Below the pieces are notes generated by a model, which saw only the letters and a list, made by a program, of their open reading frames with translations, ran no database searches and was not told the DNA's origin. 64,000 bases of DNA, from assembly GCA_040767425.1 (NCBI GenBank), contig JAXGON010000001.1, positions 5,477-69,476 of the forward strand. The letters are read 5' to 3'. Below, piece after piece: positions 4,870-38,737 of the stretch (position 1 is its first letter; each line of letters starts with the position of its first letter). Source of the DNA: Anaerolineae bacterium. GTDB taxonomy: Bacteria > Chloroflexota > Anaerolineae > UBA1429. Both the position numbers and the translations under genes were made by a program.

Positions 4870-5880
4870 CTAGGCTGCGTCGGGCCCAAAGATGTCCTTA
4901 TCGTGGCCAGCCTCGCGCAGCCACTCGACGGTGCGCTGGATGCCCTCTTCTAGGCCCACTCGGGGGCTGTACCCTAGCTCTCGCCGGGCGCGATCGATAG
5001 GATAGATCTGATCGGTGCCCATCACCTCCACGTTGGAGGCGGTCATGGGTGGGCGATCGTTGCGGCCGGTCATGCGATAGTAGCTCTCCCACAGCGAGGC
5101 CAGCAGATAGGCCATCCACCGCGGTTGGCTCTTTTCCGGACGTGAGAGCTGAAGCGCGTCGGCCAGCGCGAAAATGTATTCGCGCCAGGTGACCTCGCTG
5201 CCGTCGGTGATGTTATAGATGCGGCCGGCGGCCTCTTCCTTGTCGCCCGCCAGAATCATGGCGTCGACTAGGTTGCCCACGTAAGTGAGCCCGGCGACAT
5301 GCTTGCCGCCATCATAGAGCTTGAGAGTGCGGTCGCGCAGGCCGTCCAGGATCGCCAGCACCGTTCGCGTTGCCCTCGGCCCGTACACCGTTCCCCGGCG
5401 GATGATCACCGTGGGCAGATTCACCGTCCGGTGGCGGGTGCGCACCAATGCCTCGGCCTCGATCTTGGAGTCGGCATAGCCGAACCCCCTGGGCGAGGGC
5501 GAGACCGTCTCGTCGGCGGGTGTTCCCGGGAACCCGTAGACCTGGGTGGTGCTCAGAAAGACGAACCGTGCCCCGACGCGCGTGGCGGCGCCCAAGACGC
5601 TGCGAACGCCGTCCACATTGGCTTGCTGGAAGGCGATAGCCGGGCCCCAGTCGCGCGATAGCTCGGCGCAGTGGAACACGCGATCGACGCCTTCCGCAGC
5701 GGCGGCCACAGCCGCCTGATCCGTCAGGTTGCCCACGTGCACCTGCACGCCGCGTTTCCTCAGCACGGCCACATCGCTGCTCGGCCGCGCAAACGCTCGA
5801 ACCTCCTCGCCTCGCAATAGCAGAGCATCCGCCAGATGCCAGCCTACCAGGCCAGTGGCTCCCGTCACCAAGCTTTTCAC
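4870..5880 (-). CDS. NAD-dependent epimerase/dehydratase, extended-SDR family.
   Basis: N-terminal MKSLVTGATGLVGWHLADALL matches the GxxGxxG Rossmann motif. Length and family pattern are typical. Confidence 0.8.
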   Translation of the reverse strand: MKSLVTGATGLVGWHLADALLLRGEEVRAFARPSSDVAVLRKRGVQVHVGNLTDQAAVAAAAEGVDRVFHCAELSRDWGPAIAFQQANVDGVRSVLGAATRVGARFVFLSTTQVYGFPGTPADETVSPSPRGFGYADSKIEAEALVRTRHRTVNLPTVIIRRGTVYGPRATRTVLAILDGLRDRTLKLYDGGKHVAGLTYVGNLVDAMILAGDKEEAAGRIYNITDGSEVTWREYIFALADALQLSRPEKSQPRWMAYLLASLWESYYRMTGRNDRPPMTASNVEVMGTDQIYPIDRARRELGYSPRVGLEEGIQRTVEWLREAGHDKDIFGPDAA

Positions 5881-6043
5881 GGCGATGCCTCCCTCCCGGG
5901 TGTTCGGGGGTCCTCGTCGCCAACAGAAACTAGAGTTATATGATATGCTTTATTATATCCAAAGACCAGCTCGGGCGCAAGGGATGTGCGGATCGGGTGT
6001 GACGCGCCTAGGCAATCAACCTTGTGCCCCGGGTCGGCGTTTG

Positions 6044-6072
6044 CCTTGGCTGTCTGGCTGCGCTAAGATAGC
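6044..6072 (+). promoter_or_regulatory. Candidate sigma70-type promoter for the downstream metallophosphoesterase gene.
   Basis: TTGCCT at 6044-6049, a 17-bp spacer, then TAAGAT at 6067-6072, about 20 nt before the ATG at 6091. Confidence 0.3.
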
Positions 6073-6090
6073 GGGTCAGGATACTCTAGG

Positions 6091-6999
6091 GTGGCAATGG
6101 ACTGGCGTGAGCCGAACGAGCGGGAGATGAACGAGGGTAACTGGGAACGGCCCATCACGCGACGAACGCTGCTCAAGCTGGGGCTTGGGGTGGTTGGCGG
6201 TGGCGCCACAGCCATGACGTTCGGCGCCTACTATACGACCTCGGTAGAGCCGGGCTGGATCGAGGTGGTGCGGCGCGATGTGCCCCTGCCTAACTTGGCG
6301 CCCGATCTCGAGGGGCTTACCATCGCTCTCCTGTCCGATCTGCACGTGGGCGCGGTGGTTTCCCCCAGTCACGTGGCCAAAGCGGTTGCGCTCGCGAACG
6401 AACTCGAGCCCGAACTGGCGGCGGTTGTCGGCGACTTTGTGACGGGAGCCGGTGGCTATGCCATCTCATGTGCTCGCGAGCTGGCCGCGCTCAAGGCTCC
6501 TCTGGGTGTCTTTGGCGTGCTGGGCAACCACGACGTATGGAGCGATCCGCGCCTGATCGTCGAGATGCTGACGCGAAACGGCGTGGCGGTGCTTCGCGAT
6601 GAGATCGCCGAGGTGCGACGCGGGGCGGCCACGCTGTCACTGGTGGGGCTAGAGGACTCGGGTCACAGCGGATCGGCCAACGTGACGCCCGAGGTGCTCG
6701 CGCTGCGGTGGCGGGGCAAGATGGCGCTGGCGCGCAAGCTGCTCTCTTCGGCGCAGGGCACCGACCTGACCATCCTGCTGGTTCACAACCCCGACGTGAA
6801 CGAGTTTCTAGAGGACGTGCGCCTGTGGACTTGGCCCTTGCGGCCACACCACGGGGGCCAGATCGCCGCCTTTCTCGCCCCGCTGCTCCCCTCCTCCTTT
6901 GGCCAGTACGCTGCCGCCCATTCAGGGCCCCTCATGCCCGTCTATGTCACCCGTGGCGTCGGCCTGACGCGCCGCGGTCCGGGCCGAACTGCCGCCTGA
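6091..6999 (+). CDS. Metallophosphoesterase of the calcineurin-like YkuE type, with a Tat-type signal.
   Basis: Has an RRTLLKLGLGVVGGGA twin-arginine signal and the motifs LSDLHVG, GDFVTG, GNHD and HHGGQ. The C-terminus looks truncated or frameshifted (see findings). Confidence 0.75.
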   Translation: MAMDWREPNEREMNEGNWERPITRRTLLKLGLGVVGGGATAMTFGAYYTTSVEPGWIEVVRRDVPLPNLAPDLEGLTIALLSDLHVGAVVSPSHVAKAVALANELEPELAAVVGDFVTGAGGYAISCARELAALKAPLGVFGVLGNHDVWSDPRLIVEMLTRNGVAVLRDEIAEVRRGAATLSLVGLEDSGHSGSANVTPEVLALRWRGKMALARKLLSSAQGTDLTILLVHNPDVNEFLEDVRLWTWPLRPHHGGQIAAFLAPLLPSSFGQYAAAHSGPLMPVYVTRGVGLTRRGPGRTAA

Positions 7000-7025
7000 G
7001 GCCTTGTGCTCACTTTGCGCTCGAT

Positions 7026-7277
7026 CTAGGCCTCACTCTCGCCGAGATACGGTCGCTCCAGCGGCGCGATGTCATCCTCGTCAAACTGGGCCGGTTTGTG
7101 CGCATCGATGTCTAGCACCCCTCGAACCAACCCATCCTTGATCAGTGGCAATACGATCTCGCTCTGCGAACGCGGGTCGCAGGCGATGTGGCCGGAAGAG
7201 GCGTGGACATCCGGCACGACCACGGGCTTGCGTGTCCGAACTGCGTGCAGGCAGACCCCCTGGCCGTTCGGCAACAT
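7026..7277 (-). pseudogene. C-terminal remnant (about 83 aa) of a GAF-domain free methionine-(R)-sulfoxide reductase-like gene (fRMsr/YebR family).
   Basis: The ORF encodes ...GQGVCLHAVRTRKPVVVPDVHASSGHIACDPRSQSEIVLPLIKDGLVRGVLDIDAHKPAQFDEDD. This matches the C-terminal half of the GAF fRMsr family, including the GHIACD...SEIVLPL...GVLDIDS motif. An in-frame TGA lies 18 nt upstream, and none of the three upstream frames encodes the missing roughly 80-aa N-terminal half. Confidence 0.6.
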
Positions 7278-7329
7278 TATCTTCTGAGTGATGGATCAGC
7301 CTTCGGTAACATTATCATTTGGGTGGCCA
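7264..7329. repeat. Tandem pair of a low-GC repeat of about 30 bp (copy A 7264-7293 is degenerate; copy B 7299-7329). A third copy lies at 27461-27487.
   Basis: B (CCTTCGGTAACATTATCATTTGGGTGG) is identical over 27-28 nt to 27461-27487. A (CGTTCGGCAACATTATCTTCTGAGTGATGG) is a diverged copy 35 bp away and contains the ATG and first codons of the GAF remnant. Confidence 0.5.
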
Positions 7330-7375
7330 CACAGCAACCATCTCACACCCTTGGCGCTTGCGAGCAACCCTGACC

Positions 7376-7404
7376 TTGACCGCGAGCTGCTCCCTTTCTA
7401 TCAT
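7376..7404 (+). promoter_or_regulatory. Candidate promoter for the beta-glucosidase gene.
   Basis: TTGACC at 7376-7381, a 17-bp spacer, then TATCAT at 7399-7404. An AAAGGAG Shine-Dalgarno lies 7 nt before the ATG at 7440. Confidence 0.3.
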
Positions 7405-7439
7405 GAATCGAGCAGAGCAAAGCAGTAAAGGAGCTCGTC

Positions 7440-8777
7440 ATGAACGCCAAGGGCGCTTTTCCAGAGGGATTCGTGTGGGGCACCGCCACCGCCTCGTTCC
7501 AGATCGAGGGGGGGAGGACCGAGCGAGGGCGCTGCATCTGGGATGACTTTTGCGACTGGCCGGGCAAGGTCTTCCAGGGTCATTCGGGCGATGTGGCCGA
7601 TGACCACTATCACCTCTTTCGTGATGATGTGGCGTTGATGGCCAGGATGGGCCTTGGGGCCTATCGCTTCTCGATCTCCTGGCCGCGGGTGCAGCCTGAC
7701 GGCCAGGGCGACGTCAACGCCAAGGGGCTCGATTTCTACGACGCGCTGGTCGATGAGCTGCTCGAACACGGCATCGCACCCTATATCACCTTGTACCACT
7801 GGGATCTACCCAGTGCCCTGCAGAGCATTGGGGGTTGGGTGGTGCGCGATACCACCGCACGCTTCCGCGACTATGCGGCGATGGTGGCCGAACGCCTGGG
7901 CGACCGCGTTTCGCACTGGATCACACACAACGAGCCTTGGGTAGTGGCTTTTCTGGGCAACCTCATGGGGGTTCACGCCCCGGGCTGGCAGGATATGGGC
8001 GCGGCCTTGCAGGTGGCGCATCACTTGTTGTTATCCCACGGCATGACGGTGCCCGTGCTGCGCGACGCGTGTGGCGAGGACGCCCAGATCGGCATCACCC
8101 TGAACCTCTCGCCGATGTATGCCGCGACCGATAGCGAAGATGATCGCCAGGCGCAACGCATTGCCGATGGCTTTGCCAACCGCTGGTTCCTGGATCCGGT
8201 GCTGCGGGGCGCCTATCCCGAGGATATGTGCGCCCTGTACGACTGGCGCCTGCCCAACGTGGCCCCTGGCGATCTGGATGTCATCCACACGCCCATCGAT
8301 TTCCTCGGCATCAACAACTACTCGCGACAGGTGGTCACCCGACGCGATGAAGGGTTGTTTGGCTATGGCACCGTGCGGCCCGAGGGGCAATACACGGCCA
8401 TGGACTGGGAGGTGTTCCCGCAAGGGTTGGAGGACCTGTTGGTGCGGCTGGGGCGTGACTACCCAGGCACCGACTTTTATATCACCGAGAACGGCTCATC
8501 CTGGGAGGATCGGGTCAGCGAGGATGGCCGGGTCCATGACCCGCAGCGCGAGCGCTACCTGCGCGCGTACCTGCAGGCCTGCGCCCGGGCGATTGCGCAA
8601 GGCGTGCCGCTGCGCGGTTACTTTGCTTGGTCGTTGTTGGATAACTTTGAGTGGGCCTATGGGTATAGCCGACGATTTGGCCTGGTGTATGTGGACTTTG
8701 AGACCCAACAGCGCATCATCAAGGATAGCGGCGAGGCCTATGCGCGCATCGCTCGCGCCAACGCCTGGGATGCATAA
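7440..8777 (+). CDS. bglA: GH1 family beta-glucosidase.
   Basis: Contains FVWGTATASFQIEGG, the catalytic acid TLYHWDLP...NEP, the nucleophile motif ITENG, and a C-terminal FAWSLLDNFEWAYGYSRRFGLVYVD. Confidence 0.9.
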   Translation: MNAKGAFPEGFVWGTATASFQIEGGRTERGRCIWDDFCDWPGKVFQGHSGDVADDHYHLFRDDVALMARMGLGAYRFSISWPRVQPDGQGDVNAKGLDFYDALVDELLEHGIAPYITLYHWDLPSALQSIGGWVVRDTTARFRDYAAMVAERLGDRVSHWITHNEPWVVAFLGNLMGVHAPGWQDMGAALQVAHHLLLSHGMTVPVLRDACGEDAQIGITLNLSPMYAATDSEDDRQAQRIADGFANRWFLDPVLRGAYPEDMCALYDWRLPNVAPGDLDVIHTPIDFLGINNYSRQVVTRRDEGLFGYGTVRPEGQYTAMDWEVFPQGLEDLLVRLGRDYPGTDFYITENGSSWEDRVSEDGRVHDPQRERYLRAYLQACARAIAQGVPLRGYFAWSLLDNFEWAYGYSRRFGLVYVDFETQQRIIKDSGEAYARIARANAWDA

Positions 8778-26591: not shown

Positions 26592-27269
26592 CTACTCGGC
26601 GCCCTCGGCGTCATCAGAGGCGTCTTCCTCGGACTCGGCCTCCTCACGCTCGGCCGCCTCGCCCTCAACACCCAGGAGCTCGAGCTCCTCTTCTTCTTCC
26701 TCTTCCTCTTCCATGCGAGGCGCGGCCACGTGGATCACGTCGGTGTCTGGTTCGGTGAGAACGTCCACATTGGGGGGGATGACGAGATCCGCCACCACGA
26801 TGGCGTCACCAAAGTTCTCTAGGCCGCTGATATCGACCGTGATCTCGGTAGGCATGTCGCCAGGGAGACACTCGACCTCCAGGGTCTCGAGCGTCTGCAC
26901 CACGGTGCCGCCGATCTCGACCACCGGGGCGATGCCTGTCTGTACGATGGGAATCTCGGTCGACACCTTTTGGTCGGCAACCACGGCGTAAAAGTCGACG
27001 TGCAGCAGGCTATAGGTGACTGGATCGCGCTGGATATCACGAATGAGGACGGTATGTGGCGACTCATTGCCGGCGACATCCAGGGTGATTAGCCGGTTAT
27101 AGCCCGCTTGAGCGACCGTCTGGATGGCCGCCTCGGCGTCCATCTCCAGGCTCTCGGTATCGATGGCGGCGCCATAGACCACCGCCGGCAGCTTTCCCTC
27201 TCTGCGCAGAGCGCGCGCCGTCTGCGATAGATCGCGCTTGGCAGCCGCAAGATAGATATCGTTCGCCAT
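26592..27269 (-). CDS. rplY: 50S ribosomal protein L25 / general stress protein Ctc, with an acidic poly-Glu C-terminal tail.
   Basis: MANDIYLAAAKRDLSQTARALRREGKLPAVVYG is a typical L25 N-terminus. The C-terminus carries EEEEEEEEELELLGVEGEAAEREEAESEED. Confidence 0.8.
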   Translation of the reverse strand: MANDIYLAAAKRDLSQTARALRREGKLPAVVYGAAIDTESLEMDAEAAIQTVAQAGYNRLITLDVAGNESPHTVLIRDIQRDPVTYSLLHVDFYAVVADQKVSTEIPIVQTGIAPVVEIGGTVVQTLETLEVECLPGDMPTEITVDISGLENFGDAIVVADLVIPPNVDVLTEPDTDVIHVAAPRMEEEEEEEEELELLGVEGEAAEREEAESEEDASDDAEGAE

Positions 27270-27345: not shown

Positions 27346-27374
27346 GAGTATAGCGACGGGTCGCAGAAGGGTCA
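27346..27374 (-). promoter_or_regulatory. Candidate promoter of the L25 gene.
   Basis: On the minus strand TTGACC (27369-27374), a 17-bp spacer, then TATACT (27346-27351). This leaves a leader of about 70 nt to the ATG at 27269. Confidence 0.4.
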
Positions 27375-27391
27375 AATCGCGTGTTCCCTCA

Positions 27392-27487
27392 GCTAACATG
27401 TTACCGAACGAGTATGATTCCCTCAGACGAGCATGTTGCTGGGGGAGTCATGAGGTGGGGCCTTCGGTAACATTATCATTTGGGTGG
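27392..27487. repeat. Third copy of the 28-30 bp repeat (27461-27487) together with an inverted partner (27392-27408), giving an 11-bp perfect inverted repeat around about 50 bp.
   Basis: 27461-27487 (CCTTCGGTAACATTATCATTTGGGTGG) is identical to 7300-7326. 27392-27408 (TAACATGTTACCGAACG) is its inverted arm, so AATGTTACCGAA pairs with TTCGGTAACATT. GC content here is about 40%, against about 65% for the surrounding DNA. Confidence 0.5.
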
Positions 27488-27502
27488 ACACATACGCATA
27501 AG

Positions 27503-38186: not shown

Positions 38187-38470
38187 CGGGTCTCCTCTCC
38201 GGTCAGGGCTATGCTGACCGCACAACAAAAAAGGCTCCTTCGTCTTCTTGGAGACGAAAGAGCCCTTCCGCGGTACCACTCCAGTTCGATGGCGGTCACC
38301 AGGCACACCACCGCGCTCGATGGCTGTAACGGGCGTTCCCGGACTGGCCTACCTATTCAGCCAGCCTGCTCCCAGGCGACTTTGGGCTGCGCTTGCCGCG
38401 AGGGGCTTTCAGCCGGTGACCCCTCTTCTCTACCAGCGCCCGACAGCCTACTCCTCCTGCTCACTGCAGT
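38187..38470 (-). promoter_or_regulatory. T-box riboswitch leader of valS, with its promoter at 38478-38506 and an intrinsic terminator.
   Basis: On the minus strand: promoter TTGACC-17-TACAAT; a stem-I region containing GGGGUCACC, which carries a GUC Val codon followed by a purine; the conserved T-box AACUGGAGUGGUACCGCGG (forward 38264-38282); and a terminator GGCUCUUUCGUC-loop-GACGAAGGAGCC plus UUUUUUGUU (forward 38224-38265). Confidence 0.6.
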
Positions 38471-38737
38471 TGACCAGATTGTAGCATGGGGGCGGCCGGC
38501 GGTCAACCTGAGGTTTCGAACGGAAAGGGGAGCACCCCTGGGCGACAAAACAACGGGTTCCACCGAGCGAGAGGCGCCTTCGCCGCTGCAGAGGTCCCCG
38601 AGATCAGGTTGCCGGGACGCGGCCAGTGGCACCCGCCCGCTCTCTTGCATATAATAGACTCAGCAAGCAAGGGTGCTTTCGCGACCGAGGCCGGTTTTTC
38701 TGTGGTAGACTCAGAAACATGGTGAAAAGGAACAACG

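Follow-up and report, generated by a model that had tools for sequence, protein, structure and literature searches.

Low-GC repeats at two loci of a 64-kb Anaerolineae window match the ends of a 1.39-kb insertion sequence

A low-GC repeat is shared by two loci of the window (the whole 64-kb stretch of DNA analysed here), one at the start of a truncated GAF gene and the other upstream of the gene encoding L25/Ctc, raising the question of what this repeat is and how it came to lie at both places. The first-pass annotation had considered a small non-autonomous mobile element or its terminal-repeat footprint, truncation of the GAF gene by a recombination scar, a duplicated gene start, and a regulatory or translation-initiation module of stress genes. 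Below we compare the repeat with related sequences in other genomes and metagenomes and examine what it has left behind at each of the two loci.

The repeat units and their match to insertion sequence ends

Exploring the window, we found two exact copies of the 27-mer CCTTCGGTAACATTATCATTTGGGTGG, at 7300-7326 and at 27461-27487, and no third site with 3 or fewer mismatches; in 100 dinucleotide-preserving shuffles there was not a single match. Ungapped and with one mismatch, the repeat extends to 33 nt (7299-7331 versus 27460-27492). The GC content of the 27-mer is 44% versus 64.5% in the window. The core of the repeat, TTCGGYAACAT, is present at four sites (7267+, 7302+, 27463+ and 27408-) versus 0.88 expected, and no shuffle reached four copies. 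Laid side by side, the copies resolve into five units of one motif of ~25-30 nt with a 35-nt period:

7267 (u1) and 7302 (u2), plus strand: tandem units, locus 1
27463 (u3), plus strand: single unit, locus 2
27443 (u4, degenerate) and 27408 (u5), minus strand: tandem units, locus 2

Locus 2 carries a minus-strand tandem pair opposite a single plus-strand unit, and the degenerate fifth unit (27443 to 27409, minus strand) had been overlooked in the first-pass annotation. The 11-bp perfect inverted repeat of this locus is formed by ATGTTACCGAA (27398-27408) and TTCGGTAACAT (27463-27473) with 54 nt between the arms, and the full imperfect arms are ~28 nt long (27381-27408 and 27464-27491). All that had previously been said of the sequence itself was confirmed, i.e. 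the 27-mer pair, the diverged copy at 7264-7293, the 11-bp inverted repeat and the low GC, as was the start of the truncated GAF ORF (MLPNG) inside the repeat: the ORF at 7026-7277 on the minus strand begins within the inner repeat of locus 1.

Scanning one genome per prokaryotic species with the 24-nt degenerate pattern TTCGGYAACATTATCNNYTGRGKG, for which we estimate about one chance match, yielded six loci, all of them in Chloroflexota MAGs (Dehalococcoidia, Anaerolineae and unclassified Chloroflexota). All six carry the same tandem pair, 35 nt apart, and their flanks are unrelated beyond its end; the second copy ends ...CATTTGA(T/C)TTGACAC or ...TTTGGGTGGACAC. A metagenome scan using the window's own inner-repeat 19-mer as query returned seven loci, five of which were low-GC chance matches. 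The two real ones, L009 and L011, are full-length insertion sequences (IS) of 1390 bp, identical to each other and residing at different sites. The IS has a GC content of 57.6%, ends in GTGT...ACAC and carries two repeats per end, each end comprising two copies of a ~25-nt motif (TTCGGTAACATTATC.T.TGAG.G) placed 35 nt apart. The ends of L009 and L011 form imperfect inverted repeats of ~28 nt (GTGTTCCCTCAGCTAAAATGTTACCGAA / TTCGGTAACATTATCATTTGGGTGGACAC), and the termini deduced from related copies read 5'-CG(T/C)GT...ACAC(A/G)-3'.

Blastn of the L009 IS against the window detected exactly three significant segments:

7260-7330, plus strand: lone IS right end, IS 1320-1390 (68/71 identical, no gaps), with the inner repeat at 7267-7291 and the outer repeat at 7302-7330, terminus ...CCAC
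27381-27459, plus strand: IS left end, IS 1-79 (73/79 identical, no gaps), with the outer repeat at 27381-27408, the degenerate inner repeat at 27416-27443 and the transposase ribosome-binding region GAGGTGGG
27460-27491, plus strand: IS right end, the last 32 nt, IS 1359-1390 (32/32 identical), outer repeat only

Short-word blastn and tblastn were also run with the L009 element, and no IS fragments beyond these three segments were found in the window; tblastn detected no transposase gene anywhere in the 64 kb. We are therefore highly confident that the low-GC repeat represents the terminal region of a ~1.39-kb IS and that the window holds two decayed remnants of this IS, neither of which is functional. 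Neither can move on its own. The earlier proposal of a mobile element or its terminal-repeat footprint is borne out, as both loci align to the ends of the 1390-bp IS. The proposed duplicated gene start did not survive the comparison: ATGTTRCCGAA is the reverse complement of the core TTCGGYAACAT, which is found at both IS ends, and on the coding strand of the IS the core holds the stop codon of the transposase (..GTT CGG TAA).

The parent element and its family

The IS of L009 and L011 carries a single transposase ORF of 415 aa that begins ~10 nt past the inner left repeat and whose stop codon sits in the inner right repeat (..CTG GCC GTT CGG TAA). The residues D171, D232 and E275, constituting a DDE triad, are invariant in an alignment of seven transposase sequences. 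A search for homologs returned 5578 proteins at E<=1e-10, typically 412-447 aa long, most of them on contigs of 1.3-2 kb, i.e. about the length of the element, as would result if repeated copies were assembled into short contigs of their own. A precomputed PF00665 match was present in most of the 120 homologs listed. The best curated models for the transposase were Pfam rve (E=4.7e-4) and NCBIfam IS481, both scoring well under their cut-offs; the 224-bit cut-off of IS481 (NF033577) was reached neither by the ORF of L003 (45.3 bits) nor by the transposase of L009 (27.2 bits). Judged by these profile scores, IS481 fits best of all models but is no more than a distant relative, and family membership is not established. 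What appears mildly new is that the transposase does not reach the cut-off of any curated IS family model. In the L009/L011 transposase, five residues (GNPCR, 235-239) are inserted right after the catalytic D232-N-G; this insertion is absent from six homologs and might impair the enzyme.

The arrangement of the ends is conserved across the family. In L003, a second pair of repeats lies inverted 1.5 kb away from the first, with a frameshifted integrase-core (rve) gene between the pairs, and in L004 and L006 homologous transposase fragments adjoin the repeats. Three more complete elements were fetched via their proteins (L022, L023 and L024). In L003, L023 and L024, a homologous transposase gene is enclosed by ends that each carry two repeats, and in L022 the right end is reduced to one repeat. 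Perfect 5-bp target duplications flank L009 (GCCGG) and L024 (ATGGG) and were found in none of L003, L022, L023 and the window's locus-2 remnant, that is, in two of six cases. A 7-bp duplication (AGCCGGC), suggested by L009, was rejected, as L024 supports 5 bp only. Mobility of the family is evident from L009 and L011, which are identical copies with different left flanks, and from two MAGs each carrying two right ends with different flanks (L002/L006 and L005/L007). Contigs L001, L005, L007 and L011 end inside or beside a repeat, as is to be expected when repeated DNA is assembled from short reads.

A lone right end with a few hundred nt of IS interior is present in L002 (Dehalococcoidia MAG JAUYDP010000259.1, ~1300-1560 of the reverse-complemented locus) and gave no transposase match, indicating that one-ended remnants are common in this IS family. 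Reading the translation, the L002 remnant adjoins a gene pair resembling an AbrB-type antitoxin and a PIN-domain toxin.

The parent IS resembles the IS481 family (NF033577; related to IS3, retroviral-integrase DDE superfamily) in carrying a single transposase ORF, whose product has a helix-turn-helix-like N-terminal region and a DDE core of the rve type, in its length of ~1.4 kb and in its TGT...ACA ends; a short target duplication, as in IS481, was present here in two of six cases (5 bp). It differs from IS481 in its low scores (27-45 bits versus the 224-bit cut-off), in the location of the transposase stop codon inside an end repeat, and in that its ends are made of two ~25-nt motifs at 35-nt spacing rather than of a simple terminal inverted repeat. 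To our knowledge, two-motif ends are not a described feature of IS481. Phage Mu, Tn7, IS21 and Tn552 carry several transposase-binding sites per end and encode transposases of the DDE/integrase superfamily. Like these, the parent IS combines subterminal motifs in direct orientation, repeated at both ends, with a transposase of that superfamily; unlike these, which are larger and have a helper ATPase or further proteins, it is a single-gene element. By this analogy, the paired motifs are probably transposase-binding sites, an outer and an inner one, that would position the enzyme on the termini.

A probable deletion scar in the GAF gene at locus 1

The features of locus 1 next to the lone right end are:

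7026-7265, minus strand: GAF / free-methionine-(R)-sulfoxide-reductase-like pseudogene, 5'-truncated, matching residues 53-123 of 132
7253-7265: IS/GAF junction zone, in which the stretch AGACCCCCTGGCC reads either as IS (AGACTCTGGCC in L009) or as the GAF codons G-Q-G-V

The GAF ORF (83 aa) covers only positions 52-125 of the 136 positions of the Pfam GAF_2 profile, i.e. an incomplete GAF domain, and its start ATG (7277-7275) comes from the inner repeat of the IS. Full-length GAF relatives are 126-132 aa long. The window GAF aligns to the 132-aa relative P0242 from residue 53 (G-S-G-V-C) onwards, the tblastn match starting at 7265, and residues 1-52 of P0242 have no match anywhere in the window by tblastn. 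The earlier suggestion that a recombination scar truncated the GAF gene is thus supported, with ~52 N-terminal residues missing compared with the relatives. Upstream of the inner repeat, the full IS has the transposase coding sequence ...CTCGAGACTCTGGCCG; the window has AGACCCCCTGGCCG instead, with GAF coding sequence before that. Given that 7253-7265 is readable as IS or as GAF, the deletion joint shows a short microhomology.

We infer that the IS lay between the GAF and the GH1 genes and that a deletion extending from near the 3' end of the IS into the GAF gene removed ~1.3 kb of the IS together with the ~52 first codons. The joint would have formed at the short microhomology, and the complement of the inner repeat would by accident supply an in-frame ATG.

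The same GAF/IS scar is carried by L035 (metagenome 3300027914), which is 97.4% identical to the window, and this indicates its fixation in that population. The native GAF C-terminus (...LERILTLLQPYL) survives in L035, and the window is frameshifted at this point. No intact syntenic GAF locus was found among the five protein-search matches, and the one long contig among them, L021, shares only the GAF-epimerase neighbourhood; exact-protein look-ups for the window's GH1 protein and for the 83-aa GAF ORF gave no match.

Aligning window positions 5491-7612 with L035 required 21 gap openings in 2.16 kb, and the metallophosphoesterase gene encodes 302 aa in the window versus 315 aa in L035. Small indels seem to be numerous in the window, resulting from assembly error or from real decay, and the lengths of its ORFs are therefore to be treated with caution.

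A 111-bp remnant upstream of the L25 promoter

At locus 2, IS 1-79 is joined directly to IS 1359-1390 (junction sequence GAGGTGGGGCCTTCGGTAAC); the locus is therefore a 111-bp internally deleted IS without positions 80-1358. The start codon of the transposase is deleted, and the left inner repeat carries four substitutions, three of them within the core. No target-site duplication surrounds the element, its flanks being AATCG versus TACGC (or AAATCGC versus ATACGCA), and its left flank is homologous to relatives and its right flank is not. The element lies next to the promoter of L25, which is located outside it:

27347-27375, minus strand: L25/Ctc promoter, TTGACC-17 nt-TATACT, identified by promoter scan

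The -35 box of this promoter is 4-5 nt from the IS left terminus. The promoter is kept in L015-L020 and L025-L034: relatives whose L25 is 74-78% identical have the same -35 and -10 hexamers, and none of them has the motif. We also examined ten close-relative contigs, members of the 90%-identity L25 cluster, one of which is an Anaerolineae MAG (GCA_050949385.1). In all ten, the promoter and the 5'UTR are almost identical to those of the window and a divergently transcribed rho gene lies upstream of L25, and the IS motif is absent from every one of them, a difference that also speaks for the mobility of the family. L027 is 90.5% identical to the window over 3.8 kb, and the blastn alignment ends at 27378, 2-3 nt from the IS terminus; beyond the 111-bp remnant, the window continues into the 3' end of a gene for a 750-aa glycosyltransferase-like membrane protein. 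The end of homology to L027 and the replacement of rho by the glycosyltransferase-like neighbour place the remnant exactly on a synteny breakpoint, which explains why the target duplication is missing.

Most likely, an IS-associated rearrangement put the glycosyltransferase-like gene in the place of rho, and the 111-bp remnant marks the site. The internal deletion may have occurred after the rearrangement or have been combined with it; this order of events is a reconstruction. With a mutated inner left site and no inner right site, the remnant is a doubtful candidate for mobilisation in trans.

The 111-bp element could instead belong to an actively propagating MITE family that is mobilised in trans by the full-length IS and whose many copies share the same junction. 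We consider this improbable. The element is short, has no coding capacity and retains both inverted ends of the IS, and contig L001 breaks inside its left repeat, suggesting repeated DNA in that metagenome; bacterial MITEs derived from an IS and of comparable size are known, e.g. MITEAba12 (PMC6382973), and the locus-2 element resembles such internal-deletion derivatives in being non-coding, bounded by IS inverted ends and intergenic, beside a promoter. Against a MITE, the element has no target-site duplication and lies exactly on the synteny breakpoint, its ends are asymmetric, with a mutated inner repeat on the left and one of the two repeats kept on the right, and no second copy with the 79/1359 junction was found among the fetched loci. 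For the locus-2 element, 'decayed IS remnant at the breakpoint of a rearrangement' is a more apt description than 'MITE'.

It is possible, although we hold this view only tentatively, that the parent is a large IS family, apparently common in Chloroflexota and lying outside the curated models (>5000 homologs, none of those tested reaching the NCBIfam cut-off, with two-motif ends and a stop codon in the end repeat), and that the 111-bp remnant records a recent IS-mediated swap upstream of the L25 promoter that possibly altered the control of L25.

That the remnants were co-opted later, with the AT-rich IS end acting as an UP-like element or otherwise altering L25 transcription and the IS-supplied ATG expressing the 83/84-aa GAF fragment, seems very unlikely. 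The IS terminus does lie at the distance from the -35 hexamer at which UP elements act, and in L035 the ORF starting at the IS-derived ATG is intact to the native C-terminus. However, the GAF fragment is without ~40% of the GAF domain and its 3' end is frameshifted in the window. In addition, promoter scans of the loci detected no hybrid promoter created by the IS ends; the promoters of GH1 and L25, the only ones detected, lie outside the repeats.

Hardly credible is the view that the repeats are operator or promoter modules through which a host transcription factor co-regulates GAF/fRMsr and L25/Ctc, or a duplicated translation-initiation region: both loci are intergenic and near sigma-70-type promoters, the 35-nt spacing of the units equals about three helical turns and the minus-strand reading begins ATG-TTR-CCG-AA, but transposase genes in unrelated contexts are flanked on both sides by these sequences in six or more other assemblies and metagenomes of Chloroflexota, the L25 promoter and a near-identical 5'UTR are retained by relatives from which the repeats are absent, the locus-1 gene supposed to be regulated is a truncated pseudogene, and no Rfam family scored above chance. 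The regulatory or translation-initiation module put forward in the first-pass annotation falls with it.

Several further candidates were rejected. A minus-strand promoter giving a leaderless mRNA (GATAAT, then GTTACCGAA) was dropped, as the same sequence is found at transposon ends. None of the operator consensus sequences of RDRM, LexA, CIRCE, HAIR and CtsR fits the repeat, and there is no tRNA near either locus from which an attachment site could derive. Rfam searches of the window at curated thresholds gave only an unrelated T-box; relaxed searches gave nothing at locus 2 and, at locus 1, a 17-bit match to a snoRNA model (cut-off 60) that we attribute to chance.

IS remnants, lone ends, IS-derived miniature elements and IS-linked deletions and rearrangements are textbook features of genomes. 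The two dead IS fragments are ordinary genome scarring and carry no new biological principle. For annotation, 'IS remnant' is the appropriate record for both loci, rather than 'regulatory motif' or 'gene start', and 'pseudogene' for the 83-aa GAF ORF. The remnants also provide a dated rearrangement marker in an Anaerolineae-like lineage, given that the gene order upstream of L25 differs from that of the 90%-identity relatives at the IS end, and the paired-repeat ends are a handy signature for finding, in metagenome bins of Chloroflexota, an under-annotated IS family and the breaks in assembly that it brings about.

A few observations on L25 and elsewhere in the window stand apart from the remnants. 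In L015, whose L25 is 78% identical and whose contig starts 146 nt upstream of L25, positions 29-37 read ACATGTTAG directly before GATTTGACC, just upstream of the -35 box; this 9-mer is also present in the window's IS left end and could be a chance match (~3-4% by our estimate) or an older, further-eroded scar. The 5'UTR of L25 (27270-27340, minus strand) forms a leader of ~85 nt with a hairpin, CAUCGCAGCG-AUCUU-GCGCUGUCGAUG, that is kept in L015, L016 and L018 with apparently compensatory changes and is nearly identical in L025-L034. The hairpin matches no Rfam family at E<=1 and may be an undescribed ribosomal-protein leader. The L25/Ctc protein itself (26592-27269, minus strand) has a long acidic C-terminal tail, EEEEEEEEELELLGVEGEAAEREEAESEEDASDDAEGAE, and most of its homologs cover only ~80% of the query. 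The T-box leader, located at 38247-38473 on the minus strand, scored 101.8 bits, above the Rfam gathering score, which fits a Chloroflexota origin of the window.
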